Shown: positions 1 through 15,460 of the stretch, one piece after another
How positions within the stretch are numbered: the stretch's first letter is position 1
Layout of the letters: the number at the start of each line of letters is the position of its first letter
DNA from: a virus
Taxonomy: Duplodnaviria; Heunggongvirae; Uroviricota; Caudoviricetes
Strand: one strand, 5' to 3'
DNA length: 15,718 nucleotides
Virus record (IMG/VR): IMGVR_UViG_3300029504_000114
Coordinates: 1-15,718 of that record
The notes under the pieces: model-generated
What the model was told of the DNA's origin: nothing
Databases searched by the model: none
The model's input: only the letters and a program-made list of their open reading frames with translations
Position numbers and translations under genes: made by a program

Positions 1-1053
1 TTACGGGGTAATGCCAACCGCTGCCGCCACTTTGTCGCCACTTGGCAGCGTTGCCAGAGGATTGAAACGGAGCGCCGTTTCCAGATGATCCGGTGCCAGA
101 TGTGCGTAACGCATAGTCATTTTTATATCGTGGTGTCCGAGAATTTTTTGTAAGGCCAGAATGTTTCCACCCGACATCATGAAGTGCGCCGCAAACGTAT
201 GGCGCAGAACGTGTGTGAGTTGACCGCGAGGGAGCACGATAGACGTTTTTTCCATCACGGATAAAAATTGAAAATAGCAGTCTGTGAAGAAATTGAACCC
301 ATCAAGCGCCATGATCTCTTCGTAAAGCTCTTTACTGATAGGGATGCTTCTGTTTTTCTTCCCCTTCGTTCTTACAAAGGTAATTCGGTATTTGGTCACC
401 TGTGAACGAGTAAGATTTACGGCTTCTCGCCAGCGTGCGCCTGTGCTTAAGCATATCTTAACTACCAGTGCCAGAATTGGGTCCTGACGTTTGCAATCAG
501 CCAGTAATTCAACAATCTGCTCATGGGTAAGCCATGCCATCTCTTTTTCTGCGATGGTGAATTTTCGCATGTTCTCCAGTGGGTTCGGATACGACCATTC
601 GCCCAGGCGGGATAGTTCGCTAAAAACACTACTTAGATAGCTTTGCTCCAGGTTAATGGTGACCGGGCTTGCTCCTTTCTTCCATTTCTCGCTGAAGTAG
701 ATCTCACCTGTCAGGCGTTTATCTCGATAGTGGGCAAACATTTTAGAGGTTAGATCAGTTGCAAGGGGATTGCCCAGAGCGTCAACCATCAGCAGCAATT
801 TGTCATAGACATGCTGCCCAGCTGTCAGTGATTTACCATGTAGTTTGAACCATAGCTCAACCACGTCTTTCAGTGTTCGACGATCCACTGATTCTCCCAG
901 CCAGGGCTTTGCTTCGGTTTCTTCCATCGTATGGCGCTCAAAAGCCAGAGCTTCGCCTTTGGTGGCGAATTGTTTACGCACACGACGCCCACTACGTCCG
1001 GCGGGGTAACATTCGCAAAGCCATTTTCCTGTGGTGAGTTTTCGTACTGCCAT
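1..1053 (-). CDS. int: Phage tyrosine integrase (P2/186 Int-like)
   Basis: ORF 1..1131 (-); likely start is the Met of MAVRKLTTGKW at 1053, preceded by GGAGGG. C-terminal catalytic-region features (R...HxxR...Y: LRHTFAAHF..., MRYAHL). Stop TAA at 1-3. Confidence 0.9.
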   Translation of the reverse strand: MAVRKLTTGKWLCECYPAGRSGRRVRKQFATKGEALAFERHTMEETEAKPWLGESVDRRTLKDVVELWFKLHGKSLTAGQHVYDKLLLMVDALGNPLATDLTSKMFAHYRDKRLTGEIYFSEKWKKGASPVTINLEQSYLSSVFSELSRLGEWSYPNPLENMRKFTIAEKEMAWLTHEQIVELLADCKRQDPILALVVKICLSTGARWREAVNLTRSQVTKYRITFVRTKGKKNRSIPISKELYEEIMALDGFNFFTDCYFQFLSVMEKTSIVLPRGQLTHVLRHTFAAHFMMSGGNILALQKILGHHDIKMTMRYAHLAPDHLETALRFNPLATLPSGDKVAAAVGITP

Positions 1054-1239
1054 AAAAAATGCCCTCCAATAGAGAGCATTTTTACTGTATATATAACCAG
1101 TGTCAATGTATGAAATCCTGCGACCATACATCTCACTGAAGCCATAATGAAGTTGGCTATTTTTTGCTATGTGAGTATGTGACTTTTGCGGTTAGCCTGC
1201 GGCTCATTGTTATATTAGGCGCAGATATAAAAGCAAAAT

Positions 1240-1431
1240 TTATCGCGAGTTTTTAGTACAGATTTTTTTTGATTTACTAATAGTTCCATCATTGCAAACG
1301 AACTTTCCATCGGAGGTACAGTGAGAGACACCTCCCTTTTTCCCAGAACAAGGATAATTTTTAGCATAGGTAGTTAGTGGGTTTAATAACAAAGAGCATG
1401 ATAAAACCACAAAAAATACCTTACCAAGCAT
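1240..1431 (-). CDS. Small secreted cysteine-rich protein (signal peptide + ~40 aa mature part with 4 Cys), unknown function; moron candidate
   Basis: Strong RBS (GGGAGGAAA, 5 nt before ATG on minus strand); N-terminal hydrophobic signal-like stretch [23 protein letters not shown]; lies in an AT-rich segment between cI and int. Confidence 0.5.
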
Positions 1432-1446
1432 AGTTTCCTCCCGGTA

Positions 1447-2022
1447 TTACCTAACGTACTTAATTGTTAAACTTATAATTTTCCCAATTATTTCAACATC
1501 TTCTATCTTGCACTCGAAGGCTCTGTTTCCACCTTCAACGAAGATTCTTCCACCGGGTAAACGAGTAATGTCGCGGATTGTTATTTCGCCATCAATACTT
1601 ATTACCCATTTACCGTCACGTATATCATCAAATTCTTTATCACAAATAAATTCAGAATTGTTATCTGTGATGACAAAAGGTTTTTTAAACGTAGAGGGTA
1701 GAAATCCCTTATCAAAAATATAAAAACCGTCTTCACGCAAGGCACCATCAGATAATACATATTTAGCAACTTCCATAGTATTTGTATTACCTGAAGTTTG
1801 CTTTGAACCATGTCCGGTTGTGAGCCAATTAAGCGAGGTGCCCGTTTCAAGGGCGCACTGGATTACCCATTCTGCTGGGAATGAGTCACGCATGTAGCGT
1901 GTGGCGAGTGTACTTTTAGAGATTCCTAAATGATCGCACAACGCCTGTCGAGTTTTGAATCCATAAGCTTCTACCATGCGCTCTATAGCGCCTCGTCCGC
2001 CTTTCTCCAAATTCATGGTCAC
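1447..2022 (-). CDS. cI: CI-type immunity repressor (phage 186 CI-like, ~190 aa)
   Basis: 191 aa, divergent from the early operon; N-terminal HTH-like region (ERMVEAYGFKTRQALCDHLGISKSTLATRYMR) and overall resemblance to 186 CI as recalled; position between int and apl/cox. Confidence 0.8.
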   Translation of the reverse strand: MTMNLEKGGRGAIERMVEAYGFKTRQALCDHLGISKSTLATRYMRDSFPAEWVIQCALETGTSLNWLTTGHGSKQTSGNTNTMEVAKYVLSDGALREDGFYIFDKGFLPSTFKKPFVITDNNSEFICDKEFDDIRDGKWVISIDGEITIRDITRLPGGRIFVEGGNRAFECKIEDVEIIGKIISLTIKYVR

Positions 2023-2040
2023 TCCAAGTGAACTTTTATC

Positions 2041-2069
2041 TTGACGATTTCACTGTGCGATCGTATGTT
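2041..2069 (+). promoter_or_regulatory. Candidate rightward early promoter (pR-like) in the cI / apl switch region
   Basis: TTGACG (2041-2046), 17-bp spacer, TATGTT (2064-2069); inverted GTGAAC...GTTCAC motifs flank it (possible operator). Confidence 0.4.
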
Positions 2070-2141
2070 TATGGTGTTCACAAAATACAAACGATCCGTA
2101 TTCGTCCTGATTAATCATCATTAAACGAGGAATGTTGCATC

Positions 2142-2363
2142 ATGAGACCTAACATTTCAATCACTCTTACCACGCCTCATGTGACTATTGAACGCTATAG
2201 CGAGCTGACAGGGCTGTCCATCGATACCATCAATGACATGTTGGCTGACGGACGCCTTATCCGTCACCGTCTGCGCAAAGATAAAAAACGTGAAAAAGTG
2301 ATGATCAACATAGCAGCCATGACCGTTGATGCGCTTTCAGAATGCAATCTAAACCTTAATTAG
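2142..2363 (+). CDS. Apl/Cox-like small HTH protein (excisionase / early repressor)
   Basis: 73 aa, first gene of the rightward operon divergent from cI; HTH-like segment [21 protein letters not shown]; RBS GAGGA upstream. Confidence 0.6.
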
Positions 2364-2395
2364 TTCGATTCTGAAATACATCAGAGGCATTGACC

Positions 2396-2905
2396 ATGTT
2401 TGATTACCAAGTTTCCAAACATCCACATTTTGATGAAGCCTGTCGTGCATTCGCATTGCGCCACAACCTAGTGCAACTGGCAGAACGTGCAGGCATGAAT
2501 GTGCAGATTCTGCGGAACAAGCTGAACCCAGCTCAACCTCATTTATTAACCGCACCAGAAATCTGGTTGCTTACCGATCTGACTGAAGATTCAACGCTGG
2601 TAGATGGCTTTCTGGCACAGATTCACTGCCTGCCATGTGTACCGATTAATGAGGTGGCAAAAGAGAAACTGCCGCATTACGTCATGAGTGCAACTGCAGA
2701 GATAGGGCGTGTCGCGGCAGGTGCGGTTTCTGGTGATGTAAAAACCAGTGCAGGCCGTCGTGATGCGATCAGCAGCATTAACTCTGTTACACGACTGATG
2801 GCGCTGGCTGCTGTTTCATTGCAGGCCCGTTTACAGGCTAATCCTGCGATGGCGAGTGCAGTTGATACCGTGACTGGCCTCGGTGCTTCATTCGGTTTGC
2901 TGTGA
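2396..2905 (+). CDS. cII: CII-like phage regulatory protein (186 CII family)
   Basis: ORF 2390..2905; start probably MFDYQ at 2396 (RBS CAGAGG). Sequence recalled as close to 186 CII. Confidence 0.8.
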
Positions 2906-2912
2906 GGTGCTT

Positions 2913-3113
2913 ATGCTGACGAAAGAACCATCATTTGCATCGCTGCTGGTAAAACAAAGCCCGGCAATGCACTACGGTCACGGCTGGATCATGGGTGAGG
3001 ATGGTAAACGCTGGCATCCGTGCCGTTCACAAGATGAATTGCTGGCAGAACTATCTACGAAAAAACGGGGGAACAAATGGCTATTGAAGGCGCTGCGGCG
3101 ACTGTTCCATTAA
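2913..3113 (+). CDS. Hypothetical small early protein (occupies the position of 186 fil)
   Basis: ATG at 2913 preceded by GAGGTG; 66 aa; assignment is positional only. Confidence 0.4.
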   Translation: MLTKEPSFASLLVKQSPAMHYGHGWIMGEDGKRWHPCRSQDELLAELSTKKRGNKWLLKALRRLFH

Positions 3114-3418
3114 GCCCCGGTGAACGCCTGAATGGACTTAATCACATAGCGGAATTAAGGGCGAAAGTTTTTGGCCTGAATATTGAGTCAGAGCTTGAGC
3201 GGTTTATTAAAGATATGCGTGATCCACGGGATATCAATAACGAACAAAATAAACGAGCACTGGCAGCCATATTCTTTATGGCAAAAATTCCGGCTGAACG
3301 TCATAGCATCAGCATTAATGAGCTGACCACTGACGAAAAGCGGGAGTTGATTAAAGCAATGAATCATTTTCGTGCAGTGGTGAGCTTATTTCCCAGACGG
3401 CTAACCATGCCGAATTAA
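3077..3418 (+). CDS. Hypothetical early protein (occupies the position of 186 dhr)
   Basis: 113 aa ORF with GGGGGA RBS; overlaps the upstream ORF by 37 nt; no recognisable motif. Confidence 0.5.
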   Translation: MAIEGAAATVPLSPGERLNGLNHIAELRAKVFGLNIESELERFIKDMRDPRDINNEQNKRALAAIFFMAKIPAERHSISINELTTDEKRELIKAMNHFRAVVSLFPRRLTMPN

Positions 3419-3479
3419 CCAACCAATGAAATTAATGGCGTAAACCCGCCGGGCATCCCTTTATCTAAATTCAGGAGAA

Positions 3480-3719
3480 TTGATTATGCGTAATATTGAA
3501 ACCCTCTCGACCAAAACCGGACCGGATGACGCAGGGCTTAATATTTTACTGACAGAGGCTCGTCTGGAAGAACGCCGGGCAAGGGCTGAAGCAATGGCAG
3601 CTCGCCTTGATAGCCTGGCGTGTCATATCACATCCCGCCAGCTAACCCACGTCGAAGCGGCAGAACTGCTTCGTGTGACTGCTGAAGCAATCCAGAACGA
3701 AGCGCAGGAGATCCACTAA
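3480..3719 (+). CDS. Hypothetical phage protein (P2 orf80/81-like position)
   Basis: 79 aa, RBS CAGGAGA; stop overlaps the next start (TAATG). Confidence 0.5.
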   Translation: MIMRNIETLSTKTGPDDAGLNILLTEARLEERRARAEAMAARLDSLACHITSRQLTHVEAAELLRVTAEAIQNEAQEIH

Positions 3720-3946
3720 TGGCTGATGCAATGGATCTCGTACAGCAGCGCGTTGAAGAAGAACGCCAACGCCATATCCGTGCTGCCCGTGCCAAAACGC
3801 CGGGCGTGTCCCGCGTGCTTTGCATTGAGTGTGAAGCGCCAATTCCGCCAGCACGCCGCCGTGCCATTCCGGGTGTGCAGCTTTGCATTACCTGTCAGGA
3901 AATCGCAGAGCTGAAAGGCAAACATTACAACGGAGGTGCTGTATGA
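3719..3946 (+). CDS. TraR/DksA-family C4 zinc-finger protein
   Basis: 75 aa with CIEC...(17 aa)...CITC four-cysteine motif; typical phage TraR-like position upstream of the replication gene. Confidence 0.7.
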   Translation: MADAMDLVQQRVEEERQRHIRAARAKTPGVSRVLCIECEAPIPPARRRAIPGVQLCITCQEIAELKGKHYNGGAV

Positions 3947-4800
3947 GCACCATCCTGAAATGGGCGGGAAATAAAACTGCCATAATGTCCGAACTGAAAA
4001 AACATCTTCCTGCTGGCCCGCGACTGGTTGAACCTTTCGCGGGTTCCTGTGCTGTGATGATGGAGACGGATTATCCCAGCTATCTGGTTGCGGATATTAA
4101 TCCTGATTTAATCAACCTCTATAAAAAGGTTGCCGCTGATTGTGAATCGTTTATATCTCGCGCCAGAGTTTTATTTGAGATCGCAAACAGGGAGGTGGCT
4201 TATTACAACATAAGGCAGGAGTTTAATTACTCAACTGAAATTACTGATTTCATGAAAGCGGTATATTTCCTGTATCTCAATCGTCACGGTTACCGTGGTT
4301 TATGTCGCTATAACAAGAGCGGGCATTTCAACATTCCCTACGGTAATTATAAAAATCCGTATTTCCCTGAAAAAGAAATTCGCGCATTTGCAGAAAAGGC
4401 CCAGCGAGCAACGTTTATCTGCGCCAGCTTTGATGAAACGCTGGCGATGTTGAAGGCGGGGGATGTGGTGTATTGCGATCCGCCGTATGACGGTACGTTT
4501 TCCGGCTATCACACTGACGGCTTCACTGAAGATGACCAGTATCACCTGGCATCTGTTCTTGAACATCGGTCATCAGAAGGACATCCGGTCATTGTTTCTA
4601 ACAGTGACACATCCCTGATCCGTTCGCTGTATCGCAATTTTACTCACCACTACATCAAGGCAAAACGCAGCATCGGTGTGGCAGCTGGCGAGGGTAAATC
4701 AGCAACAGAAATCATTGCTGTTTCCGAGCCGCGCTGCTGGGTGGGATTTGATTATTCGCGTGGCGTGGATAGTTCTGCCGTGTACGGAGTACGTGCATGA
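3943..4800 (+). CDS. dam: DNA adenine methyltransferase (Dam-like, GATC-specific family)
   Basis: Start [11 protein letters not shown] (ATGA overlap with upstream stop); DPPY catalytic motif encoded at 4477-4488; ORF 3883..4800 trimmed to the Met with the coupled start. Confidence 0.85.
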
Positions 4801-7211
4801 GTCATGCCGATATGAACAACTGCTGCGGCTTTAACGAAGCTGCCGCATCGTTCTCATGGAACAGCCCGAAAAAGGCCATTAACCCTTATCTGGACCCGGT
4901 GGAAGTTGCGCCGGTTTCTACGCTTTCAAACCTGATCACTCTGTACGCTGCCGATAACGAGCAGGAACAGCTGCGCCGTGAGGCGCTGAGTGATCAGGTC
5001 TGGGAGCGTTATTTCTTTAATGAATCCCGTGATCCTGTCCAGCGCGAAATGGAACAGGATAAGCTCATTAGTCGGGCAAAGCTGGCGCATGAGCAGCAGC
5101 GTTTTAATCCGGATATGGTCATTCTGGCGGACGTCAACGCCCAGCCTTCCCATATCAGCAAGCCGCTGATGCAACGTATTGAATACTTCAGCAGCCTGGG
5201 CAGGCCAAAGGCTTATTCCCGCTATTTACGTGAGACGATTAAGCCATGTTTGGAACGACTGGAGCATGTACGCGACAGTCAGCTATCTGCATCTTTTCGC
5301 TTTATGGCAAGCCATGAAGGGCTGGACGGCCTGCTGATCCTGCCTGAAATGAGTCAGGATCAGGTGAAACGCCTGTCTACCTTGGTAGCTGCGCATATGA
5401 GTATGTGCCTTGATGCCGCTTGTGGCGATTTGTATGCCACCGATGACGTTAAGCCAGAAGAAATCCGCAATACATGGGAAAGGGTGGCAGCGGAAACCCT
5501 GCGTCTGGATGTCATCCCGCCTGCGTTTGAGCAACTCCGTCGGAAAAGAAACCGCCGTAAACCCGTGCCCTATGAACTCATTCCGGGTTCGCTGGCGCGT
5601 ATGTTGTGCGCCGACTGGTGGTATCGGAAATTATGGAAGATGCGTTGCGAATGGCGGGAAGAGCAGTTGCGTGCAGTCTGCCTTGTCAGCAAAAAAGCAT
5701 CTCCTTATGTCAGCTATGAAGCCGTGATGCATAAACGTGAGCAGCGCCGTAAGTCGCTGGAGTTTTTCCGTTCTCATGAGCTGGTGAACGAAGACGGCGA
5801 CACGCTGGACATGGAGGATGTGGTAAACGCCAGCAGCAGCAACCCAGCGCATCGCCGCAATGAGATGATGGCCTGTGTTAAAGGTCTGGAGCTTATCGCG
5901 GAAATGCGCGGTGACTGCGCCGTTTTCTACACCATCACCTGTCCGTCACGTTTCCATTCCACGCTAAATAACGGCAGGCCCAACCCAACCTGGACAAATG
6001 CGACGGTAAGACAAAGCAGTGATTATCTGGTCGGCATGTTTGCTGCATTTCGTAAGGCGATGCACAAAGCCGGATTGCGGTGGTATGGCGTGCGGGTGGC
6101 TGAGCCGCATCATGACGGTACAGTTCACTGGCACCTGTTGTGTTTTATGCGCAAAAAAGACCGCCGCACCATCACTGCATTACTGCGTAAGTTTGCCATC
6201 CGTGAAGACCGCGAGGAGCTGGGCAATAACACTGGGCCGCGCTTTAAGTCTGAGTTGATTAACCCGCGCAAAGGTACGCCAACAAGCTACATCGCGAAAT
6301 ACATCAGTAAGAACATTGACGGGCGTGGTCTGGCTGGCGAGATCAGCAAGGAAACGGGGAAATCCCTGCGTGATAATGCTGAATACGTTAATGCCTGGGC
6401 GTCTCTGCATCGTGTTCAGCAATTCCGCTTCTTTGGCATTCCGGGGCGTCAGGCTTACCGTGAACTGCGATTGCTGGCTGGTCAGGCGGCAAGGCAACAG
6501 GGGGACAAAAAAGCAGGTGCGCCGGTACTGGATAACCCGCGCCTTGATGCCATTCTGGCTGCTGCTGATGCTGGTTGTTTTGCCACCTACATCATGAAGC
6601 AGGGTGGCGTACTGGTTCCCCGCAAATATCACCTCATCAGAACTGCTTATGAAATCAACGAAGAGCCGACCGCCTATGGCGATCACGGCATTCGTATTTA
6701 TGGCATCTGGTCACCTATTGCAGAGGGCAAGATCTGCACTCATGCCGTGAAGTGGAAAATGGTTCGTAAGGCCGTTGACGTTCAGGAGGCGGCAGCCGAC
6801 CAGGGCGCTTGCGCCCCTTGGACTCGTGGCAATAACTGTCCCCTTGCTGAAAATTTGAACCAACAAGGGAAAGACAAATCAGCTGATGGGGATACCAGAA
6901 CGGACATTACCCGCATGGATGACAAGGAGTTGCACGATTACCTGCACAGTATGAGCAAAAAAGAGCGCCGGGAACTGGCTGCAAGGTTACGCCTGGTGAA
7001 ACCGAAACGGCGTAAAGACTACAAACAGCGAATTACAGACCATCAGCGACAGCAGCTTGTCTATGAGCTGAAGTCCAGAGGATTTGATGGTAGCGAGAAA
7101 GAGGTCGATTTACTCCTTCGCGGCGGCAGTATTCCGTCAGGAGCAGGCCTGCGTATCTTCTATCGGAACCAGCGTTTGCAGGAAGATGATAAGTGGCGGG
7201 ATCTGTATTAA
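4797..7211 (+). CDS. A: Replication initiation protein A (P2 gpA-type rolling-circle endonuclease)
   Basis: 804 aa; motifs [15 protein letters not shown] and [12 protein letters not shown] characteristic of P2/186 gpA; ATGA overlap with dam. Confidence 0.9.
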
Positions 7212-7302
7212 TTACGCGGGTTAACAATTCGTGCTCTTAATAATACCAGGCATATCAGGCTGATGAACGTAAAAAACGTTTTACATCAGTAAGATTATTA
7301 TA

Positions 7303-7322
7303 TACTGTAAATATAAACAGTG
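7303..7322. promoter_or_regulatory. LexA (SOS) box
   Basis: TACTGTAAATATAAACAGTG: CTGT-N8-ACAG at 7305-7320, ~45 bp upstream of the 62-aa ORF; an adjacent partial site ATGTATACAGTA lies at 7326-7337. Confidence 0.6.
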
Positions 7323-7362
7323 GATATGTATACAGTATTGCTTTGGTGTCATAGGAGGAAAG

Positions 7363-7551
7363 ATGCAGGACTATTTTTTGGAGTCTTTGAAGCTCCAGCG
7401 CATTGATTTTTTTCTTAAGCTTGTGGCGGCTAGTGAGTGTAGTGATGAAGAGAAGGGGCTGGCTCTGCAGTGGGTTTCTGAATTGACTGATGAACTCATG
7501 GCAAAAATCAGAACCCACGAATACAACCGCTCAATGGATGTCATCAGCTGA
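7363..7551 (+). CDS. Small protein, possible N-terminal part of a split Tum-like antirepressor
   Basis: 62 aa with strong RBS AGGAGG; directly downstream of the LexA box and upstream of the DinI-like ORF. Confidence 0.45.
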   Translation: MQDYFLESLKLQRIDFFLKLVAASECSDEEKGLALQWVSELTDELMAKIRTHEYNRSMDVIS

Positions 7552-7561
7552 GGTGACTTTT

Positions 7562-7795
7562 ATGCGCATTGAAATAATGATCGATAAAGAGCAGAAGATT
7601 AGCCAGTCTACCCTGGACGCCCTTGAATCCGAGCTTTACCGCAATCTGCGCCCCCTGTATCCCAAAACGGTAATTCGCATTCGCAAAGGTAGCTCTAACG
7701 GGGTGGAACTAACCGGACTGCAACTGGACGAAGAAAGAAAACAAGTGATGAAAATTATGCAGAAGGTGTGGGAAGACGACAGCTGGCTGCATTAA
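7562..7795 (+). CDS. DinI-like protein (Tum C-terminal domain-like)
   Basis: Start MRIEIMIDKEQ at 7562 with RBS GAGGTG; 77 aa; DinI-family pattern (MRIE... near N-terminus, ...WEDDSWLH at C-terminus). Confidence 0.75.
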   Translation: MRIEIMIDKEQKISQSTLDALESELYRNLRPLYPKTVIRIRKGSSNGVELTGLQLDEERKQVMKIMQKVWEDDSWLH

Positions 7796-7930
7796 GAAAC
7801 GTTGCTGGCGTCTGAACTTGCTTCTGGCGTCAGCAAGGTTGAACAACGAGCCCTTGCGAGGCGTTAGCTCTGTAGTGCATGTCTATGCCGCATGAGATCG
7901 CATGATCGTTTGAGGATCGTTTTTGCTAAG

Positions 7931-7954
7931 GCCCGCCAGAACTGGCGGGCTTTT
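7931..7954 (+). terminator. Rho-independent terminator after the tum/dinI-like operon
   Basis: GCCCGCCAG / CTGGCGGGC perfect 9-bp stem followed by TTTTG. Confidence 0.6.
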
Positions 7955-8026
7955 GCGTAGATCATGCAGGTGCATGAAAACCACTACATAAAGCGGGCAG
8001 GCGTGGCGGGGATACGAGCGCGCGCC

Positions 8027-8055
8027 TTGCCTTATATCTATTTGTTCATTAAAAT
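8027..8055 (+). promoter_or_regulatory. Candidate promoter for the retron ncRNA/RT operon
   Basis: TTGCCT (8027-8032), 17-bp spacer, TAAAAT (8050-8055); predicted start near 8062. Confidence 0.3.
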
Positions 8056-8061
8056 CATTAT

Positions 8062-8218
8062 GCTCTTTAGTGTAGGAACATTGGTTCCAGCCGGGTGATT
8101 AGCCAGGCTTAAATTTATTGTCCGGTTTAGGGTTGCGAAAGACACAGATTTCTCCTTCGCATCCCTGCCCGGGGCAGATATGCGAAGGAGAAATCTGTGT
8201 CTTTCGCTGTCTTTAGTG
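8062..8218 (+). ncRNA. Candidate retron msr-msd non-coding RNA (exact ends and a1/a2 unresolved)
   Basis: Non-coding segment directly upstream of the retron-type RT; small stem-loop GGAAC-ATTG-GTTCC (8075-8088) then a 73-nt near-perfect hairpin (8135-8207); bounded by a 9-bp direct repeat TCTTTAGTG (8064-8072 and 8210-8218). Confidence 0.55.
8135..8207. repeat. Long near-perfect inverted repeat / hairpin (candidate msd stem-loop of msDNA)
   Basis: GCGAAAGACACAGATTTCTCCTTCGCAT (8135-8162) is the exact reverse complement of 8180-8207; the centre CTGCCC-G-GGGCAG is itself palindromic. Confidence 0.9.
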
Positions 8219-8273
8219 AAGAGTCAAAGCGCTATGTAAAGTTGCATAGCGCTTTGGTTTTAAGAGGGGTTAT

Positions 8274-9209
8274 ATGCAACTAACTTCTAAAATTATCAGT
8301 AAGTTTAATTATAATAGATTAGCTTTCCAATTACTTTTAAATGAGGCCCCCAAAAAATATAAAGTTTATTATATTCCTAAACGTGGCGCAGGTTTTCGGG
8401 TGATAGCTCAGCCGACAAAGGAACTAAAAAACGTACAGAGATTTATAGTATCTTTGCTACAGCCAAAGCTGCCTGTTCATCATAAGGCAATGGCATATGA
8501 ATATAAAAAAAGTATTAAAGATAATGCATTGTTGCATAAAGATAATAATTATATTCTTAAAATGGATTTTCAGAACTTCTTTAACAAAATTAAACCTGAT
8601 ATATTTTTCTCGAAACTTGAGAACACAGGGCTGAAATTGGATTCATTTGATGAGAACACCCTACGTAATTTGCTTTTTTGGCGTCCGGGAAAAAAGAGAA
8701 GTACAACGTTGATATTAAGTGTAGGGGCGCCAAGCTCACCATTTATTAGTAATTTTGTTATGTATGACTTTGACAAGAGTCTTGATGATTGGTGCCGTAA
8801 CAATGGTATCACTTATTCAAGGTATGCAGATGATATAACTTTTTCAACTAATATTAAGGATATATTGTGCAGGGTTCCTAAGGTGGTAAAAAAAATGTTG
8901 TCGCTCCATGTTCCCGGTCTATCAATCAATGAATCTAAAACAATTTTTACATCGATGGCTCATAATCGGCACGTGACTGGTGTAACACTTACACCTCAGG
9001 GCAATTTATCAATTGGTCGCGATCGTAAAAGGATGCTGTTTGCAAAGATTCATAAATATTCTTTGGGACTCTTATCTTCCGAAGAAATAAATAAAACCAA
9101 AGGGATGATTGCGTTTGCAAATTATTTGGAGGGTGATTTTTTATTAAGGTTACAAAAAAAATATGGTTGTGAGTTAATAACTAAGTTCCTGATGGAAGGA
9201 AACAAATAA
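8274..9209 (+). CDS. Retron-type reverse transcriptase
   Basis: 311 aa; RT motifs YYIPKRGAGFRVI, LKMDFQNFF, VGAPSSP, YSRYADDITFS (YADD at 8823-8834) and the retron-typical NRHVTGV (VTG) motif; RBS AAGAGGGG. Confidence 0.9.
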   Translation: MQLTSKIISKFNYNRLAFQLLLNEAPKKYKVYYIPKRGAGFRVIAQPTKELKNVQRFIVSLLQPKLPVHHKAMAYEYKKSIKDNALLHKDNNYILKMDFQNFFNKIKPDIFFSKLENTGLKLDSFDENTLRNLLFWRPGKKRSTTLILSVGAPSSPFISNFVMYDFDKSLDDWCRNNGITYSRYADDITFSTNIKDILCRVPKVVKKMLSLHVPGLSINESKTIFTSMAHNRHVTGVTLTPQGNLSIGRDRKRMLFAKIHKYSLGLLSSEEINKTKGMIAFANYLEGDFLLRLQKKYGCELITKFLMEGNK

Positions 9210-10843
9210 TGATAAATAAAATGAATTTAGAGACTTGCTATGTTGATTTTTTAGAGTTGGAATCACATGTGATAAACGAGGATTATTTGAAGGAGTCTGT
9301 TGAGCTTCAAAAGCTAATATCTACTTTAAATGAGAGTAAGTTTCATTTAAATAAAATAGGTATACATGATTTTAAACGGATAAGAGAACTACAGATTTCT
9401 TTAGAAGATGATTTGACTGTTTTTGTCGGGGATAACGGATTCGGTAAAAGCACTATTTTGGATGCAATAGCAATTGTTTTGAGTTGGTTGAGATCAAATA
9501 TTGAAAAGGAGAGTAAGCCTGGTACTTATATTAAAAGCCATGAAGTTAATAACTCTGTTGATGTTGAGTATGCATCAATTGATGCAAATATAAAACTCAA
9601 GGACTTTAATACCAGTATTTTGATTACTAAAGCGAAAGAGGGGGCATATTATTCTAGAAATAATGAATTGTTGGAGGTAAAAAAACTTGCAAGTATTTAT
9701 AGACTTGTGAATAAATATGTTGATAATGCAAGCTTGCCTTTGATGGCATATTATTCTATTGCGCGTTCTTATATAGGCGGTGGGGTTGATAGGAAAAGAA
9801 AAAATGCTAAAACTAAAACTGTATGGTCAAAATTCGATGTGTATGATGAAATCGAGTTTGACAGAAATGATTTTACCGATTTTTTTCAATGGCTTGTATT
9901 TCTTCATAACAGAGCTTCACAAGAGAAATTGAGTGAGTCACAAACGACAATCAATGCGTTATTTTCAGATATTCAGAGTTTGAAAGCAACATTAACTCAA
10001 CTATCTGCGATTGATAATATTGATTCAACAGTTATAAAAGGTTTAGAGCTTTCGCTTAAAGAAAAATTGAACTACATGAAATCTCTGCAATCAGGAGAAC
10101 ATAAGTTTAATAATGCAGTATCACTTTATGATAGTGTTATAAATACCATTCTAAAGTTCTTGCCTGAATTTCAGTGGATTAAGCTTGTTTATGGTGATGA
10201 TGATTATAAGATTATCCTTAAAAAAGGAGAGGTTGAATTAGATATTCAACAGTTGTCTCAAGGTGAGAAAACTATATTTACTTTAGTTGGTGATTTGGCT
10301 CGACGTTTAATTTTACTTAATCCTAATTTATCTAATCCTCTATTGGGATATGGGATTGTTTTAATTGATGAAATTGATTTGCATTTGCATCCGCAATGGC
10401 AACAGACAATTATTGAGCGTTTGACATCTACATTCCCAAATGTTCAATTTGTAATTACTACCCATAGCCCACAGGTTTTATCCACTGTTAGCTCTCGTTC
10501 AGTGCGTATTCTACAGGAAGTGGAAGTAGATGGTGTTAATGATTTGATAGTGTCTCACCCCGACTATCAAATAAAAGGTGTTAGTAATCAGGATGCACTT
10601 TTATATGGAATGAGAACTGATCCTATACCCTCTACTAAAGAAAATGGTTGGCTTGAAGAATATAAAAAATTGGTTGAGCTTAATCGTTATAGCAGTGACG
10701 AGGCTCTTTTGTTAAGAGAAAAAGTTATTAAACATTTCGGATTAGACCATCCTTTAGTTCAAGAGTGTGATGATCTTATATCTGTTTTGGAGTTCAAAAA
10801 TAAGATAAATCAGCACTTTTCTGGAAGTAAGGATGTAAAATGA
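9209..10843 (+). CDS. ABC/SMC-type ATPase (PtuA-like retron effector ATPase)
   Basis: 544 aa; Walker A GDNGFGKST (9428-9454), signature-like LSQGEK, Walker B VLIDEIDLHLH, H-loop-like ITTHSP; start overlaps the RT stop (TAATG). Confidence 0.85.
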   Translation: MINKMNLETCYVDFLELESHVINEDYLKESVELQKLISTLNESKFHLNKIGIHDFKRIRELQISLEDDLTVFVGDNGFGKSTILDAIAIVLSWLRSNIEKESKPGTYIKSHEVNNSVDVEYASIDANIKLKDFNTSILITKAKEGAYYSRNNELLEVKKLASIYRLVNKYVDNASLPLMAYYSIARSYIGGGVDRKRKNAKTKTVWSKFDVYDEIEFDRNDFTDFFQWLVFLHNRASQEKLSESQTTINALFSDIQSLKATLTQLSAIDNIDSTVIKGLELSLKEKLNYMKSLQSGEHKFNNAVSLYDSVINTILKFLPEFQWIKLVYGDDDYKIILKKGEVELDIQQLSQGEKTIFTLVGDLARRLILLNPNLSNPLLGYGIVLIDEIDLHLHPQWQQTIIERLTSTFPNVQFVITTHSPQVLSTVSSRSVRILQEVEVDGVNDLIVSHPDYQIKGVSNQDALLYGMRTDPIPSTKENGWLEEYKKLVELNRYSSDEALLLREKVIKHFGLDHPLVQECDDLISVLEFKNKINQHFSGSKDVK

Positions 10844-11523
10844 AATATCTATCTAGGCAAATGCCAGGGCCTTCCGTTCTTAATAAATTTGACTATAGGA
10901 GGGATGATTGGAATTCCCTATCATCAAATGATAAAAAAGAAATATGGGAAGAAATAATAAAAATGCAAGGTAAATTATGTGCTTATTGCGAGAAAAAAAT
11001 AGAGCATCATAAAAGTGGTGGCAAAAATAAAGTTGAGAGGCATATTGAGCATTTTTACAGGAAAAGTTATTACAAAAATTTAACTTTCGAGTGGTCTAAT
11101 TTGTTTGGCTCATGTGGTGAGCCGCAAAGGTGTGGGTTTTATAAGGATAAGCAAAAATATAACGATGATGATTTAATTAAAGCTGATAGACAAAATCCAG
11201 ATGTTTTTTTCCATTTTTTGGAAAATGGTGATGTTCATATTAGAGAAGGCTTGAATGAGAAAGAACACAAAATGGCAGAGGTTACGTTAAGAGTATTTAA
11301 CTTAAACCCGTCCTCAGGAGGAGTCAAGGCGGAAAGAAGACGTGCAATAGAATTAAGCATGACATTAATAAAGGAACTGGTCGGATGTGCATCTCAGCTT
11401 ATTGAATCAGGATGTGAAATTGAAGATGTTAGATCTATGGTCTTTGATGAGTTTAAAAAGAATGTAAAAGATAGATGCTTTACCACTGCGATAAAGCATG
11501 TTTTTGAGAATAGAATGCCTTAA
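10840..11523 (+). CDS. HNH endonuclease (PtuB-like retron effector nuclease)
   Basis: 227 aa; CAYC...HHKSGGKNKVERHIEHF...NL...SCGEPQRC HNH/zinc-finger pattern; ATGA overlap with the ATPase stop indicates translational coupling. Confidence 0.85.
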   Translation: MKYLSRQMPGPSVLNKFDYRRDDWNSLSSNDKKEIWEEIIKMQGKLCAYCEKKIEHHKSGGKNKVERHIEHFYRKSYYKNLTFEWSNLFGSCGEPQRCGFYKDKQKYNDDDLIKADRQNPDVFFHFLENGDVHIREGLNEKEHKMAEVTLRVFNLNPSSGGVKAERRRAIELSMTLIKELVGCASQLIESGCEIEDVRSMVFDEFKKNVKDRCFTTAIKHVFENRMP

Positions 11524-11546
11524 AGGTTAGAGGGATGTATATATAA

Positions 11547-12160
11547 TTAATCTATATTATATTCTGAGAAATTGATAATATGCATCCCTATCCACTGATT
11601 AAATTCATGGATTTTTTTTTGTAGAGGTACTAATTCATTTGTCACAAAAACCTTACTAGCTTTCTCCACATCCCCAAAACCCCCAACATTATTAGGCATT
11701 ATCCCCATCATCTGTGGCGGAACGCGATGTGCTGCCATCATGTCATCGCGGCTGACATTTTTGATATTCAGAAACTCATCCTTCGCCGCAACTTCTGACA
11801 AAGGGATGATCTGAAGGCCGTCCTTTTTGCCATTAGGCGAGTACATAAACAGGTTGCGGAAGTTGCCTGGACCTTTGGCGCTTTTCATCGCGTTGCGGAG
11901 ATTGTTCACATCCTCCTGATTCTGCGCGGCGTCGGTCATGTACATGATGAAGCCTGCATGGCTGCCGTTGATGTAATACTTACGGCGGAACAGCGTGGCA
12001 GACTCGTTGAGCAGGGCGGATGGAATGGCAGAAAGATAGCCTGGCAGGCCGTAGATCTCCTGGTTGATGTCCGGTTCCATCAGATGAAAAATGCTGCCTT
12101 TCGTGAACTGATACGGCTGGGTTGTCATACCGTATTGCACAAACCAGTAGGTACCCGCGA
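11547..12160 (-). pseudogene. Portal protein (P2 gpQ-like) fragment lacking its N-terminal part; 3' end possibly altered by the cargo junction
   Basis: Portal-like sequence from MTTQPYQFTKG onward (ATG at 12126-12128) toward lower coordinates; the upstream part of ORF 11547..12347 is antisense to the D' fragment and not portal-like. Junction coordinate approximate. Confidence 0.6.
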
Positions 12161-12554
12161 ACCTGCGAAGAAAGAAAGCACCACGGTGAAGCGTAAGCGC
12201 AGAACTAAGAAGCAGAAGAAAGAGCCAGAAGCGAAGCAGGGCGATTACCTGGTGGGTACGGATGAAAACGTGCTGGTACTTAATCGCACTTATGCCAACC
12301 GGAGCAACGCCGAACGAGCGGCGAAAATGCAGTGGGAACGCCTGCAACGCGGCGTTGCGTCATTCTCGCTACAACTGGCAGAAGGGCGGGCAGATCTCTA
12401 CACGGAAATGCCAGTGAAAGTCAGTGGCTTTAAACAGCCGATAGATGATGCGGAATGGACCATTACGACTCTGACGCATACCATCAGCCCGGATAACGGT
12501 TTTACGACCAGTCTGGAGCTTGAAGTGAGGATTGATGATTTCGAAATGGAATGA
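12160..12554 (+). pseudogene. Tail protein D (P2 gpD-like) C-terminal fragment
   Basis: C-terminal ~130 aa of ORF 11958..12554 (...LNRTYANRSNAERAAKMQWERLQRGV...FTTSLELEVRIDDFEME) resembles gpD C-terminus as recalled; N-terminal 65 aa of the ORF is antisense to the portal fragment. Junction approximate. Confidence 0.55.
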
Positions 12555-12644
12555 TTCTTCGCAATGGAGAACTTTTAAGTTTGCAAAATGGAATAATGCG
12601 GTATCATTATTGTGAATTTAGCAAAAATGGGGAGAACTCGAAAA

Positions 12645-12863
12645 ATGATGATTTGCCCACTGTGTGGAAGTGCCGCCCATACTCGCAGCAGTTTTCAGGT
12701 ATCTTCATTGACCAAAGAGCGTTACAACCAGTGCCAGAACATTAACTGCAGCCATACTTTTGTTACCCATGAAACTTTTGTTCGTTCGATTGCAACGCCA
12801 AAAGAGTCAAATCCGGTTCAGCCGCATCCAATGAAATCAGGACAGGTGGCGCTCTCTCTTTGA
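12645..12863 (+). CDS. ogr: Ogr/Delta-family zinc-finger late transcription activator
   Basis: Start MMICPLCGSAAHTRSS (ATG 12645, RBS GGGGAGA); CPLC...(Ogr-type) ...CQNINCSHTF zinc-finger pattern; ~72 aa. Confidence 0.8.
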   Translation: MMICPLCGSAAHTRSSFQVSSLTKERYNQCQNINCSHTFVTHETFVRSIATPKESNPVQPHPMKSGQVALSL

Positions 12864-12943
12864 CGCTGCCGCCATTTTGTCGCCATCGTTAAAAAACAGT
12901 GTTTCTAACATCATGATTTTAAACAGCTTAAATTTCAGGCAAC

Positions 12944-12986
12944 AAAAAACCCATCAACCTTGAACCGAAATGGCGGGGTTGATGGG
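12944..12986 (-). terminator. Rho-independent terminator on the minus strand downstream of ybjL
   Basis: CCCATCAACC (12950-12959) / GGTTGATGGG (12977-12986) 10-bp stem; on the minus strand it is followed by a T6 run (plus-strand A6 at 12944-12949). Confidence 0.5.
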
Positions 12987-13098
12987 CTCCACAAAATGGG
13001 GACATCAAAGAAAAGCAGTGGCACTAATTAAGACTGATGCCCTGCGGAAAAGTTCTGCGGTTGTGCAAAAAAATTTCATTTTCAGGGCAACTTCAGTT

Positions 13099-14784
13099 TT
13101 ATCCTAATCCTGGCCATACCATGACGATGATTGTCCCTGCCAGCGTCAGCAGGACGTTGGCGATTGCATAGGTGCCCGCATAGCCCAGCGCCGGGATGTT
13201 ACTGCGAGCTGTATCACTGATGATCTCCATTGCCGGCGCGCAGGTACGTGCGCCCATCATTGCGCCGAACAACAGCGCGCGGTTCATTCGCAATACATAA
13301 GCACCGAACAAGAAACAGATAACCACGGGCACCAGACTGACAATCAATCCGGCAATCAACATCTGACCGCCAATCGCGCCCAGGCCGTTATTAATACCGC
13401 TACCGGCGCTCAGACCAACGCCTGCCATAAACACCATCAAGCCGAACTCTTTCACCATGCTTAATGCACCCTGCGGAATGTAACCGAAGGTCGGGTGGTT
13501 AGCACGCATAAAGCCCAGCATAATTCCGGCGAATAACAACCCGGCAGCGTTCCCCATGCCGAAACTGAATGTGCTGAACTGGAAGGTGATCATCCCGATC
13601 ATCAGCCCAATAACAAAGAAGGCGCAGAATGCCAGCAGGTCAGTGACCTGGCTGTGAATCGAGATAAAGCCGATGCGATCGGCGATGGTTTTTACGCGGC
13701 GGGCATCGCCGCTGACTTGTAAAACGTCACCTTTGTTAAGCACGACGTTGTCATCTATCGGCATCTCAATCTGGCTACGAATGACGCGGTTAAGGAAGCA
13801 ACCGTGATCGGTCAACTTCAGTTGTGCGAGACGTTTACCTACAGCGTTATGGTTTTTAACGACCACTTCTTCAGTGACGATACGCATGTCGAGAAGGTCA
13901 CGATCGAAAACTTCTTTACCGTTACGGAAGCTGGGATCGAGTCGGGCATGGGCGTCGGGATAGCCTACCAACGCTATTTCATCGCCCATTTGTAGCACGG
14001 CATCACCGTCTGGATTTGCCAGAATCCCGTTACGTCGAATACGTTCAATGTAGCAGCCGGTTTGTCGATAAATACCCAGTTCACGCAGATTTTTGCCGTC
14101 GGTCCAGGCCACCAGTTCCGGGCCGACGCGATAGGCGCGGATCACCGGTAAATAAACCTTACGGTTGGCATCAGTGTCCAGGCCACGTTCGCGGGCGATT
14201 TGCTGGGCGCTGGTCTGTAAGTCCTGATGCTGCAATTTCGGCAAGTAACGCGCACCAACAATCAAACTCACCAGACCGATTAAATAGGTTAAGGCATACC
14301 CGAGGCTCAGATTATCCAGTGCCAGTGAGAGCTGCCTGCTTTCCATGCCGGAATGACGCAGTGTATCGCCAGCACCGACCAGAACCGGTGTCGACGTCAT
14401 AGAGCCTGCTAACATACCGGCCGTCAGGCCAATATCCCAGCCAAACAGCTTACCTAACCCTAAGGCGATCACCAGCGCACTGCCAACCATCACCAGTGCT
14501 AACATTAGGTAATTTTTCCCATCGCGAAAAAAAATGGAAAAAAAGTTCGGTCCGGCTTCGACCCCGACGCAGAAAATAAACAGCATAAAGCCAAGATTAA
14601 GCGCATCGGTGTTAATGCTGAAATGTTGTTGGCCTAATAACAGCGATACGACTAAAACGCCAATGGAATTACCCAGTTGGATCGAACCAAGTCGTAACTT
14701 TCCGAGACATAGCCCAAGCGCGAGGACCACAAATAATAACAGAATGTAATTCCCATTTAACAATTCGGCGACGTTTATATTCAC
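13099..14784 (-). CDS. ybjL: Putative transporter YbjL (AAE family, with two RCK/TrkA-C-like domains)
   Basis: 561 aa; starts [24 protein letters not shown] and matches E. coli YbjL as recalled; host gene. Confidence 0.9.
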
Positions 14785-15053
14785 GGAGGCTAACTTCTTG
14801 TTTACTAGTAAGCTGTTGAAAGAAATGGTAATTTACGATAATGTTTTTTACCAGAATTCAGGGCGCAGATTCATTCAGCGCACCTAAACGATAGTAAAGT
14901 AACAATATATTTTACTAGTGTAATCACATTAGGTATCAACGGCTATATGAATTGCGTTGGCCTATATTAGCATGGAATGCGAAGCGGCTTTATCTTACTG
15001 AACGCCACACTGGCGAAAAATGTGTTCGATAGACGCAGTGTCAGGAGGAACGA

Positions 15054-15431
15054 GTGAAACATAAACAACGTTGGGCGGGGGCAATCTGCTGTTTTGTCCT
15101 CTTCATTGTGGTGTGCCTTTTTCTGGCGACGCACATGAAAGGCGCTTTTCGGGCTGCCGGGCATCCTGAAATCGGCTTGCTATTTTTCATTCTTCCTGGA
15201 GCAGTCGCCAGCTTCTTTTCACAGCGTAGAGAAGTCCTGAAACCTCTGTTTGGCGCAATGCTGGCGGCACCCTGTTCGATGCTCATTATGCGGCTGTTTT
15301 TTTCACCGACGCGCTCATTCTGGCAAGAGCTGGCATGGTTACTAAGCGCGGTGTTCTGGTGTGCGCTGGGGGCACTGTGTTTCTTATTTATCAGTAGTTT
15401 GTTTAAACCACAGCACAGAAAAAATCAGTAA
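15054..15431 (+). CDS. ybjM: Inner membrane protein YbjM
   Basis: 125 aa hydrophobic protein, GTG start with RBS CAGGAGG; matches E. coli YbjM as recalled. Confidence 0.8.
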   Translation: MKHKQRWAGAICCFVLFIVVCLFLATHMKGAFRAAGHPEIGLLFFILPGAVASFFSQRREVLKPLFGAMLAAPCSMLIMRLFFSPTRSFWQELAWLLSAVFWCALGALCFLFISSLFKPQHRKNQ

Positions 15432-15451
15432 AGCCCTCAACGCGAGGGCTT
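15431..15451. terminator. Hairpin between convergent ybjM and grxA (possible bidirectional terminator)
   Basis: AAGCCCTC / GAGGGCTT 8-bp stem with 5-nt loop directly after the ybjM stop. Confidence 0.45.
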
Positions 15452-15460
15452 GTCAGACGA

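Follow-up and report, generated by a model that had tools for sequence, protein, structure and literature searches.

An orphan Dam-family DNA methyltransferase gene in the early-operon slot before the replication gene A of a P2/186-like prophage lineage

Phages P1 and T4 carry their own Dam enzymes (Dmt in P1), phage-encoded GATC methylases without a partner nuclease. Like the lineage described below, neither phage is known to avoid GATC, and in P1 Dam methylation controls the cleavage of pac. E. coli Dam is the product of a housekeeping gene, and the roles of its residues K9, Y119, N120, L122, R124, P134, and Y138 in GATC recognition have been described (PMC4417163). With high-copy DNA, host Dam becomes limiting (bioRxiv 10.1101/2020.06.22.160242), and the counter-selection of GATC in enterobacteriophages via MutH and under-methylation is established (PMC5014478, with McClelland 1984 and Deschavanne and Radman 1991 cited there). 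In phage 186, the gene just 5' of the replication gene A (orf84) overlaps A by 4 nt, and according to the annotation of the 186 record, translation through the end of orf84 is apparently required for translation of the A protein. The closest described systems are Salmonella phage RE-2010 (ELPhiS00010), Klebsiella phage 4LV2017, and other phages of the Felsduovirus type, in which a dam gene of 858 bp has genes for a DUF2732 protein, a zinc-finger protein, and gpA as its neighbours, with overlaps of 1 nt, 4 nt, and 4 nt. Here we analysed a stretch of 15,718 nucleotides, positions 1 to 15,718 of the IMG/VR virus record IMGVR_UViG_3300029504_000114 (the window), which carries a gene of this type.

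In the window, four genes on the + strand are chained by overlapping stop and start codons. The first is a DUF2732 family gene at 3486..3719 (Pfam PF10809, 1e-28), a homologue of P2 Orf80 and of 186 AVT79_gp34; comparison of the records indicated that it is annotated likewise in 186, P2, and PSP3. The first-pass annotation described it as a hypothetical ORF of 79 aa. The ORF is there, and that length counts from a TTG at 3480; from the ATG at 3486 the protein has 77 aa. Its stop codon (3717-3719) shares one nucleotide with the ATG (3719-3721) of the next gene, which gives a TAATG junction at 3717..3721. This second gene, at 3719..3946, encodes a TraR/DksA-type C4 zinc-finger protein of 75 aa (Pfam PF01258, zf-dskA_traR, 3e-11; NCBIfam TIGR02419, 65.8 bits, cut-off 59.7); its homologues are Orf82 of P2 and, in 186, AVT79_gp33, a zinc-finger gene of the DksA-like type. 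The sequence ATGA at 3943-3946 joins it to dam (3943..4800, 285 aa), and a second ATGA at 4797-4800 joins dam to the gene for the replication endonuclease gpA (4797..7211, 804 aa). This rolling-circle initiator is recognized by Pfam PF05840 (Phage_GPA, 2e-127), is named 'replication endonuclease' in RefSeq, and is 35% identical to the A protein of 186. All three overlaps, which had been proposed earlier, could be read directly in the sequence. None of the four ORFs contains an internal stop codon, and a Shine-Dalgarno-type GGAG or GGAGG is present 6-9 nt 5' of each of the four starts, within the preceding ORF.

Based on Pfam matches, the gene order in the window is int, CI, apl, cII, fil, DUF5347, DUF2732, zinc finger, Dam, A, and DinI/Tum. 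Apart from the slot between the zinc-finger gene and A, this is the order found in 186, P2, and PSP3; the record of ENT90 was also compared. Both the order and the overlapping codons, which are the norm across the annotated early operons of P2 and 186, are those of a P2/186-like (Peduoviridae) early lytic operon, and the earlier assignment of dam to the early/replication operon is thus confirmed. A consensus scan identified a candidate pR-like early lytic promoter (TTGACG-17-TATGTT) on the + strand at 2041..2069, in the switch region between CI and apl, a position that matches that of pR between cI and apl in phage 186. Between this candidate promoter and A, the same type of scan found no + strand promoter-like site or strong terminator that separates dam from the early operon. 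The operon position of dam, together with its overlaps, is a real and conserved feature and not the result of chance.

The protein encoded at 3943..4800 is clearly a Dam-family enzyme, as had been suggested, and a D12-class N6-adenine DNA methyltransferase. It matches Pfam PF02086 (MethyltransfD12) with 1e-76 and 258.5 bits (cut-off 22) over residues 7-244, covering all 253 profile positions, and the 'dam' model TIGR00571 with 321.9 bits (cut-off 114.85). Its score of 288.6 bits against NF008152, the NCBIfam equivalog of the host Dam, is under the cut-off of 441, indicating that this is a phage paralogue and not the host enzyme. It shares the fold family with E. coli Dam (structures 2g1p and 4gol, E=1e-73) but is only 47% identical to it and, unlike the host housekeeping gene, is phage borne and predicted to be under a lytic promoter. 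The catalytic motif IV is kept (D179-P-P-Y182, aligned to D181-P-P-Y184 of E. coli Dam), and six of the seven residues with which the E. coli enzyme reads GATC are identical (K6, Y117, L120, R122, P132, and Y136, corresponding to K9, Y119, L122, R124, P134, and Y138); at the seventh position, N120 is replaced by R118. The 5-residue loop that follows DPPY in E. coli Dam is missing. The AdoMet-binding motif I reads F32-A-G-S-C36 instead of F-x-G-x-G, with Cys in place of the last Gly and with the Phe and the first Gly unchanged. As the FAGSC variant is common to the cluster of 4038 sequences to which this protein belongs, its spread suggests that the Cys is tolerated. The other phage enzymes are distant in sequence and have other genomic settings: identity to the dmt product of the P1-like phage RCS47 is 36%, and the match to the T4 Dam structures has E=5e-18. 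The genes adjoining dam encode the zinc-finger protein and gpA, and no nuclease family was found by Pfam in the early operon, which confirms that this Dam is an orphan. Its homology and the GATC composition discussed below both predict that the enzyme is specific for GATC.

This Dam is typical of one large P2/186-like temperate lineage, which consists of the Felsduovirus-type phages and of a prophage type that carries E. coli retrons and which spans Escherichia, Salmonella, Klebsiella, and Yersinia. The gene is present in 1239 of 5426 complete E. coli genomes (23%), the dam region was found in 58 phage records, and the cluster of 4038 members was formed at 90% protein identity. The Dam copies of RE-2010, of 4LV2017-type phages, and of Kp4845-2 have 96.5-98.9% protein identity to that of the window, and over a 1.5-kb region the 30 best records showed 96.8-97.7% DNA identity. 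The layout with identical overlaps has already been annotated in RE-2010, in E. coli FORC_082, and in K. pneumoniae Kp52145, the last in a published table of Klebsiella prophages. We found nothing substantial that distinguishes the dam region of the window from those of RE-2010 and 4LV2017; the differences lie in the surrounding prophage, which in the window is without morphogenesis genes and has an Ec78-type retron as its cargo. The arrangement is therefore already known from reference phages, from RefSeq, and from a published prophage table, and the novelty implied by the first-pass annotation does not hold.

The retron cassette of the window extends from about 8030 to 11523 and is of the Ec78 type, with an msr/msd region, a reverse transcriptase (RT; 8274-9209), PtuA (9209-10843), and PtuB (10840-11523). 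At the gathering thresholds of Rfam, no retron ncRNA family was matched in the window, and only RybB was. The cassette lies between a cos-like core at 8000 and the portal gene. It begins beyond cos, and dam (3943-4800) is outside it, in agreement with the statement that this dam is not retron cargo. The same statement contrasted the gene with the Dam classically described in association with a retron of a 186-like phage, and this contrast probably fails. Hsu, Inouye, and Inouye (1990) reportedly found Dam activity for the corresponding ORF of Ec67. A 285-aa member of the 90%-identity cluster of the window Dam bears the name 'retron EC67 DNA adenine methylase', and the gene at the apl position of this operon corresponds to 'ORFA in retron EC67'. 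What was called 'retron Ec67' is a whole prophage of 34 kb with 26-bp flanking repeats (PMC7826664), and PMC6868368, where it cites Dodd and Egan 1996, has the element as related to 186. Its retron is placed between cos and a packaging gene, as in the window, but it encodes an RT-endonuclease fusion instead of an Ec78-type RT with PtuA and PtuB. An Ec67-type RT (about 586 aa) was absent from 84 related loci, where Ec78-type RTs, an Ec86-like RT, and other RT-like ORFs are found instead. As this early 'retron' was an entire prophage, the 'retron-associated Dam' of the literature and the Dam of the early operon are most probably one and the same gene, a positional identity that we infer from secondary sources and from the name of the cluster member.

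The slot between the zinc-finger gene and A is a variable and non-essential position within the CI-repressed early lytic operon, and its contents differ among P2-like phages. Phage 186 and some contigs have a PAPS-reductase-like gene there, and Salmonella phage SW3 has a Dcm, with two further methylases near it. In some relatives both types are present, in the order Dam, PAPS-reductase-like gene, A. A complete dam is present in 76 related viral contigs. Of these, 59 have the ATGA between dam and A, and the other 17 have an extra gene between the two, which in the example that was checked (L051) is chained by 4-nt overlaps. A Dam that is only 50% identical to that of the window overlaps A by 4 nt in a phage of another genus, ESSI2_ev040. 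The 4-nt overlap of dam with A resembles that of orf84 with A in 186, the difference being that the upstream gene of 186 is PAPS-reductase-like and follows two other genes. By analogy, translation of dam and A may be coupled. The A start of the window has its own GGAG 7 nt upstream and, as each of the chained starts has its own Shine-Dalgarno sequence, independent initiation is possible as well.

Dam-encoding and Dam-less relatives differ strongly in their GATC content. The pooled GATC O/E was 0.81 in 82 Dam-encoding loci, compared to 0.33 in 82 186-like loci and 0.24 in 81 P2-like loci, whereas other 4-base palindromes had O/E values of 0.88-0.93 in the three groups alike. Among 13 individual phages, from about a dozen genera or unassigned lineages and with kinship ignored in the statistics, all six that encode Dam had values of 0.77-1.04 and all seven without it (P2, 186, PSP3, and others) had values of 0.19-0.65, so that the two ranges are disjoint; five of the Dam-less phages were covered over 9-12 kb each, and a methylase elsewhere in those genomes would escape this comparison. 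The depletion in Dam-less relatives is two- to five-fold and reaches about 30-fold within the A gene of P2. The window as a whole is neither enriched in nor depleted of GATC, with 55 sites observed and 60-71 expected. The correlation of GATC frequency with the presence of Dam reflects relaxed counter-selection. It fits with a GATC methylase that maintains methylation of the phage DNA as it replicates and is compatible with MutH, SeqA, or restriction as the pressure that is relieved.

Our preferred explanation, to which we give a probability of roughly 0.7, is that the window encodes an orphan GATC Dam, typical of its lineage and located in the early-operon slot before A, that boosts methylation of the replicating phage DNA. 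The gene would be transcribed from the early promoter only once CI repression is lifted and would be translated in relay with its neighbours, with ribosomes that finish dam reinitiating at the start of A, as the annotation of 186 indicates for orf84 and A. During rolling-circle replication, the phage enzyme would supplement the limiting host Dam, and newly made phage DNA would become fully GATC methylated. Full methylation would lift the cost of unmethylated and hemimethylated GATC sites, which may consist of MutH nicking, SeqA binding, or methylation-sensitive restriction, and this would account for the normal GATC density seen here and for its avoidance in relatives without Dam. As all natural hosts are Dam+, the benefit of a phage Dam must be quantitative. 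The earlier suggestion that the enzyme could protect phage DNA thus gains indirect support, which comes from the GATC frequencies of Dam-encoding and Dam-less relatives.

It is also conceivable, though quite unlikely, that the benefit lies in anti-restriction, with pre-emptive methylation shielding injected or replicating DNA from methylation-sensitive GATC cutters of the DpnII/MboI type, or in growth in hosts with little Dam. Phage Dam enzymes have been described as anti-restriction factors against type II systems (bioRxiv 10.1101/2020.06.22.160242), the lineage covers several host genera, and the other genes found in the slot before A, such as the Dcm of SW3 and the PAPS-reductase-like genes of 186 and some contigs, also have to do with DNA modification. 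However, all the hosts have their own Dam, so virion DNA is already GATC methylated at entry. Moreover, Dam-less relatives avoid GATC in identical Dam+ hosts, which points to a pressure that acts during intracellular replication, and which the literature ascribes to MutH and under-methylation (PMC5014478).

Regulatory timing through a few GATC sites, as with Dam at P1 pac, would be another role for the enzyme, in packaging or in the lytic switch; the first-pass annotation mentioned timing as well. We consider it unlikely as the main function, and it is compatible with our preferred explanation. There are two candidate sites, a conserved GATC pair beside cos and a GATC adjoining the -10 hexamer of the candidate early promoter. 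The cos-like core (GGCGTGGCGGGGATACGAG, 8000..8018, + strand), which matches a pattern found in 80 loci, resembles the annotated cosR end of P2 (GGCGAGGCGGGGAAAGCAC) and ends the early/SOS region. About 85-96 nt to its left, two GATC sites 11 bp apart (GATCgtttgagGATC, 7904..7918) form a candidate methylation-sensitive element. They are the central pair of four GATC sites within 65 bp left of the core (7896-7963), and at least four sites occur in only 0.26% of 130-nt windows of the related loci. Of 80 related loci, in which 47 distinct flanking sequences occur, 97% retain one site of the pair and 100% the other. The corresponding stretch (the last 130 nt) of 186, PSP3, and P2 has 0, 1, and 0 GATC sites, respectively, and no pair; for 186 and P2 this is uninformative, because they avoid GATC everywhere. 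Two further GATC sites are located in the 120-bp switch region, one of them (2059-2062) one base 5' of the predicted -10 hexamer. On the other hand, the related loci are close relatives with a mean 4-mer conservation of 0.81, so that 97-100% conservation of the pair corresponds only to the 79th-100th percentile of non-coding 4-mers. Only 54-59% of the loci retain the outer two of the four sites, and, the pair near cos apart, GATC sites are in general no better conserved across relatives than other 4-mers. For P2-like phages, no experiment that connects Dam to the cleavage of cos is known to us. That methylation of the 7904/7915 pair, and possibly of the -10 GATC, acts as a replication-coupled timer of cos cleavage, packaging, or the lytic switch, in a slot dedicated to DNA modification that ties modification to the amount of initiator, is speculative and rather improbable.

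The window prophage itself is a deletion remnant, in which a junction at 12152/12153 fuses the portal gene to the 3' part of gene D and no head, lysis, or tail gene is left. With these morphogenesis genes lost, dam has no role in phage propagation at this locus and is probably a silent passenger here. A stronger version of this view is that the gene is decaying or co-opted by the host and is either inactive or, through leaky expression, alters host methylation or interacts with the retron next to it. The remnant state of the prophage agrees with this, as do Dam::gpD fusion proteins in other E. coli strains (P0008, P0009, and P0093), which represent further decay of the same element, and Retron-Sen2 is triggered by Dam over-expression via GATC in its msDNA (bioRxiv 10.1101/2020.06.22.160242). 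We nevertheless regard this version as very unlikely. The dam ORF is intact and 97-99% identical to copies in functional phages, and it is located downstream of an intact CI repressor gene and should therefore be silent in the lysogen. The msr/msd region of the resident retron is without GATC, so that triggering of this retron by the resident Dam, as for Retron-Sen2, can be rejected for the GATC route. GATC is absent from the window from 7964 to 9020, which is also expected by chance over such a length.

As a discovery, this locus is of little value, since earlier annotations already cover the gene and its family as well as where it lies and how it overlaps its neighbours. What can be corrected is a misreading, as the 'retron-associated Dam' of the literature is most probably this early-operon gene. 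If the timer idea proved to be true, the slot coupled to gpA, which is occupied by Dam, Dcm, or PAPS-reductase-like genes depending on the relative, would be a 'DNA-modification' position. P2-like phages with and without Dam share hosts, and they offer a natural comparison for work on the forces behind GATC avoidance in phages.

The 15.7-kb window is a piece of E. coli chromosome in which a 186/Fels-2-like prophage adjoins rybB and ybjL. Nearly all complete E. coli genomes match part of it by megablast, with strain FORC_082 as the top match (1-12156 at 98.2%), and integration was between rcdA and rybB/ybjL, in the 19-min region where the Ec67 element is reported to lie. Genes were assigned with Pfam, NCBIfam and Rfam and from the RefSeq annotation of matching genomes. 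The integrase (1-1053) and the 186-type CI repressor (1447-2022) lie on the minus strand. The plus strand carries the apl-position gene (2142-2363), cII (2390-2905), fil (2883-3113), DUF5347 (3077-3418), DUF2732 (3486-3719), a TraR/DksA zinc finger gene (3719-3946), the Dam-family methyltransferase gene dam (3943-4800) and A, encoding the replication endonuclease gpA (4797-7211). These are followed on the same strand by a 62-aa ORF (7363-7551), a DinI-like Tum homologue (DinI/Tum, 7563-7795), a terminator-like hairpin (about 7929-7955) and a cos-like core (8000-8018). The 62-aa ORF 5' of the Tum homologue repeats the pattern of tumA/tumB of PSP3, and a promoter of the LexA-controlled p95 type would be expected upstream.

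Only a deletion remnant of the prophage is left. Its portal gene is truncated (11547-12153, minus strand); the 3' 607 bp run at 12152/12153 straight into the 3' part of tail gene D (12153-12554, plus strand), and the head (capsid), lysis and tail genes are all gone. An ogr-like gene follows (about 12645-12863, plus strand). The RybB sRNA gene (12941-13019, minus strand; Rfam RF00110, 105 bits) lies just beyond the right end of the prophage, adjoining ybjL (13099-14784, minus strand). Other E. coli strains carry different deletions at this locus, including some that produce Dam::gpD fusion proteins (P0008, P0009 and P0093). In the window dam is intact, has an intact CI gene upstream of it and is probably a silent passenger.

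The four ORFs across 3486-7211 are all intact, and reading of the sequence bore out the chain of stop/start overlaps claimed by the first-pass annotation: TAATG between DUF2732 and the zinc finger (3717-3721), ATGA between the zinc finger and dam (3943-3946) and ATGA between dam and A (4797-4800). The first of these ORFs had been described as 79 aa long; that length counts from a TTG at 3480, whereas the RefSeq start is the ATG at 3486 (77 aa). Each of the four starts has GGAG or GGAGG 6-9 nt upstream, and a consensus scan of the plus strand from the candidate early promoter (2041-2069) to gpA turned up nothing promoter-like in between.

The assignment to the Dam family was also correct. The product covers the Pfam MethyltransfD12 domain entirely (1e-76) and scores 321.9 bits against NCBIfam TIGR00571 'dam' (cut-off 114.85), and its closest solved structures are those of E. 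coli Dam (E=1e-73, 47% identity), followed by DpnM and T4 Dam. Against the host-Dam equivalog model it reaches 288.6 (cut-off 441), so it is not the host orthologue; flanked by a zinc-finger gene and gpA, it counts as an orphan methylase. Six residues with which EcoDam reads GATC (K9, Y119, L122, R124, P134 and Y138; PMC4417163) are all kept, as is the catalytic DPPY. EcoDam N120 is replaced by R118, motif I is FAGSC, and the five-residue loop that follows DPPY in EcoDam is missing.

P2-like phages share the order DUF2732, zinc finger, variable slot, A and differ in what the slot contains. It holds Orf83 (DUF5405) in P2, gp35 in PSP3 and nothing in ENT90; in 186 it holds an exonuclease-like gene, a DUF5405 gene and orf84 (PAPS-reductase-like), all 'not essential'. 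In ESSI2_ev040 it contains a Dam 50% identical to that of the window, with a 4-nt overlap with A. In Salmonella SW3 (L086; 3392-5522 and 8546-9238) the slot gene is Dcm, overlapping A; two genes upstream lies a Dam-family gene, and a third methylase follows A. Genes of the DNA-modification type are often found in front of gpA, and one locus (L059, 3346-4176) has a 276-aa ORF without an assigned family there. The ATGA overlap of dam and A is present in 59 of 76 close relatives with a complete dam; the remaining 17 have an extra gene in between, which in the one example checked (L051, 4925-5935) is PAPS-reductase-like and chained by 4-nt overlaps. According to the 186 record, 'translation to end of orf84 appears necessary for translation of A protein', and a terminator early in A is active when A is untranslated. 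For the 186 operon, coupling of the slot gene to A is therefore documented, and by analogy we infer that dam may be translationally coupled to A in the window.

The feature is an ordinary one and has been described before. Annotation of Salmonella phage RE-2010 (4557-4790, 4790-5017, 5014-5871 and 5868-8282) and of FORC_082 in RefSeq shows these four genes with identical overlaps, and a published gene table for a prophage of K. pneumoniae Kp52145 has the same arrangement, with a methylase of 858 bp and an endonuclease of 2415 bp (PMC7826664). Matches to the 1.5-kb region were found in 58 phage records; in 45 the match spans 80% or more of its length, and in 35 identity is 95-99%. Among the best 30 of the 58, the annotated records name the gene DNA adenine methylase. 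It occurs in 1239 of 5426 complete E. coli genomes, and the 90%-identity protein cluster has 4038 members.

One member of that cluster bears the name 'retron EC67 DNA adenine methylase'. A relative with the same Dam-A arrangement (L073) carries an RT-family ORF of 320 aa (9465-10427), which we take to be Ec86-like, between cos and portal. What was called the Ec67 'retron' in 1990 was an element of 34 kb flanked by 26-bp repeats, and 'ORFA in retron EC67' matches a 222-bp gene directly after the repressor, the apl position of a window-type operon (PMC7826664). The true Ec67 retron replaces the DNA from cos to the packaging-gene terminator of a 186-related prophage, according to Dodd and Egan (1996) as cited in PMC6868368. 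Together these points suggest that the classical retron-associated Dam is most probably this same early-operon gene, and that the contrast originally drawn between the two probably does not hold.

The window has retron cargo of its own, a complete Ec78-type cassette (Retron-Eco7-like, type I-A; 8030-11523) that separates the cos core from the portal gene. A long hairpin in the msr/msd region (about 8128-8207) is followed on the plus strand by the RT (8274-9209; NCBIfam retron St85 family, 321 bits), the PtuA ATPase (9209-10843; 471.8 bits, slightly below the equivalog cut-off of 500) and the HNH protein PtuB (10840-11523). GC content is 0.35 in the cassette versus 0.50 in the early operon. Another relative (L070, 4468-5442), whose dam is cut by the contig end, has in this slot an ORF of 324 aa that contains an RT-like Y-x-D-D motif; L070 and L073 share the gpA type of the window, and other relatives carry non-retron cargo there. 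The cos-portal position is thus a defence-gene hot spot. Retron-Sen2 is triggered by Dam over-expression through methylated GATC in its msDNA (bioRxiv 10.1101/2020.06.22.160242). There is no GATC between 7964 and 9020 of the window, as chance would often give, so the msr/msd region lacks the site and this route from the resident Dam to the resident retron is closed.

Elsewhere, four GATC sites lie inside 65 bp just left of cos (7896-7963), around the terminator-like hairpin. The central pair (7904/7915, 11 bp apart) is kept in 97% and 100% of 80 relatives with 47 distinct flanking sequences, and the outer two in only 54-59%. The corresponding stretch has no GATC in 186 and P2 and one in PSP3; at positions matched by eye to the central pair, P2 has GATT and TAAG. 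Two further sites (within 2059-2096) fall in the 120-bp CI/apl switch region, one of them a single base 5' of TATGTT, the predicted -10 of the early promoter, and both are kept in at least 96% of relatives covering the region. At other sites in the relatives, GATC is no more conserved than other 4-mers. This leaves room for a P1-pac-like timing role of methylation, and no test here demands one.

The other role proposed for the enzyme, protection of phage DNA, was a reasonable guess and gains indirect support from GATC frequency. Pooled observed/expected ratios (maximal-order Markov expectation; raw, with kinship ignored) were 0.81 over the locus and 0.83 within A for loci with a window-like gpA, all Dam-encoding (n=82), compared to 0.33 and 0.31 for Dam-less loci with a 186-like gpA (n=82) and 0.24 and 0.03 for Dam-less loci with a P2-like gpA (n=81), where the A genes together contain 23 GATC against 762 expected (L005-L084 compared with Dam-less L089-L248, L004, L087 and L088). 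The remaining 4-base palindromes were unaffected (0.88-0.93 in all three groups). Thirteen phages representing roughly a dozen genera or unassigned lineages, kinship again ignored, separate completely by Dam carriage: RE-2010 (0.81), MLG42 (0.77), SW3 (1.04), Kp4850-1 (0.94), Kp4871-3 (0.89) and ESSI2_ev040 (1.01) encode Dam, whereas 186 (0.19), P2 (0.33), PSP3 (0.35), Kp4886-2 (0.35), YenM_324 (0.47), 569R5 (0.58) and ENT90 (0.65) do not, five of the Dam-less values coming from 9-12 kb each. Counter-selection of GATC in enterobacteriophages has long been observed and is ascribed to the action of MutH on phage DNA that is under-methylated (PMC5014478), and host Dam is limiting for high-copy DNA (bioRxiv 10.1101/2020.06.22.160242). 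On the simplest reading of these sequence comparisons, the phage Dam acts on GATC and would keep replicating phage DNA methylated, which would lift the counter-selection, whichever pressure is relieved.
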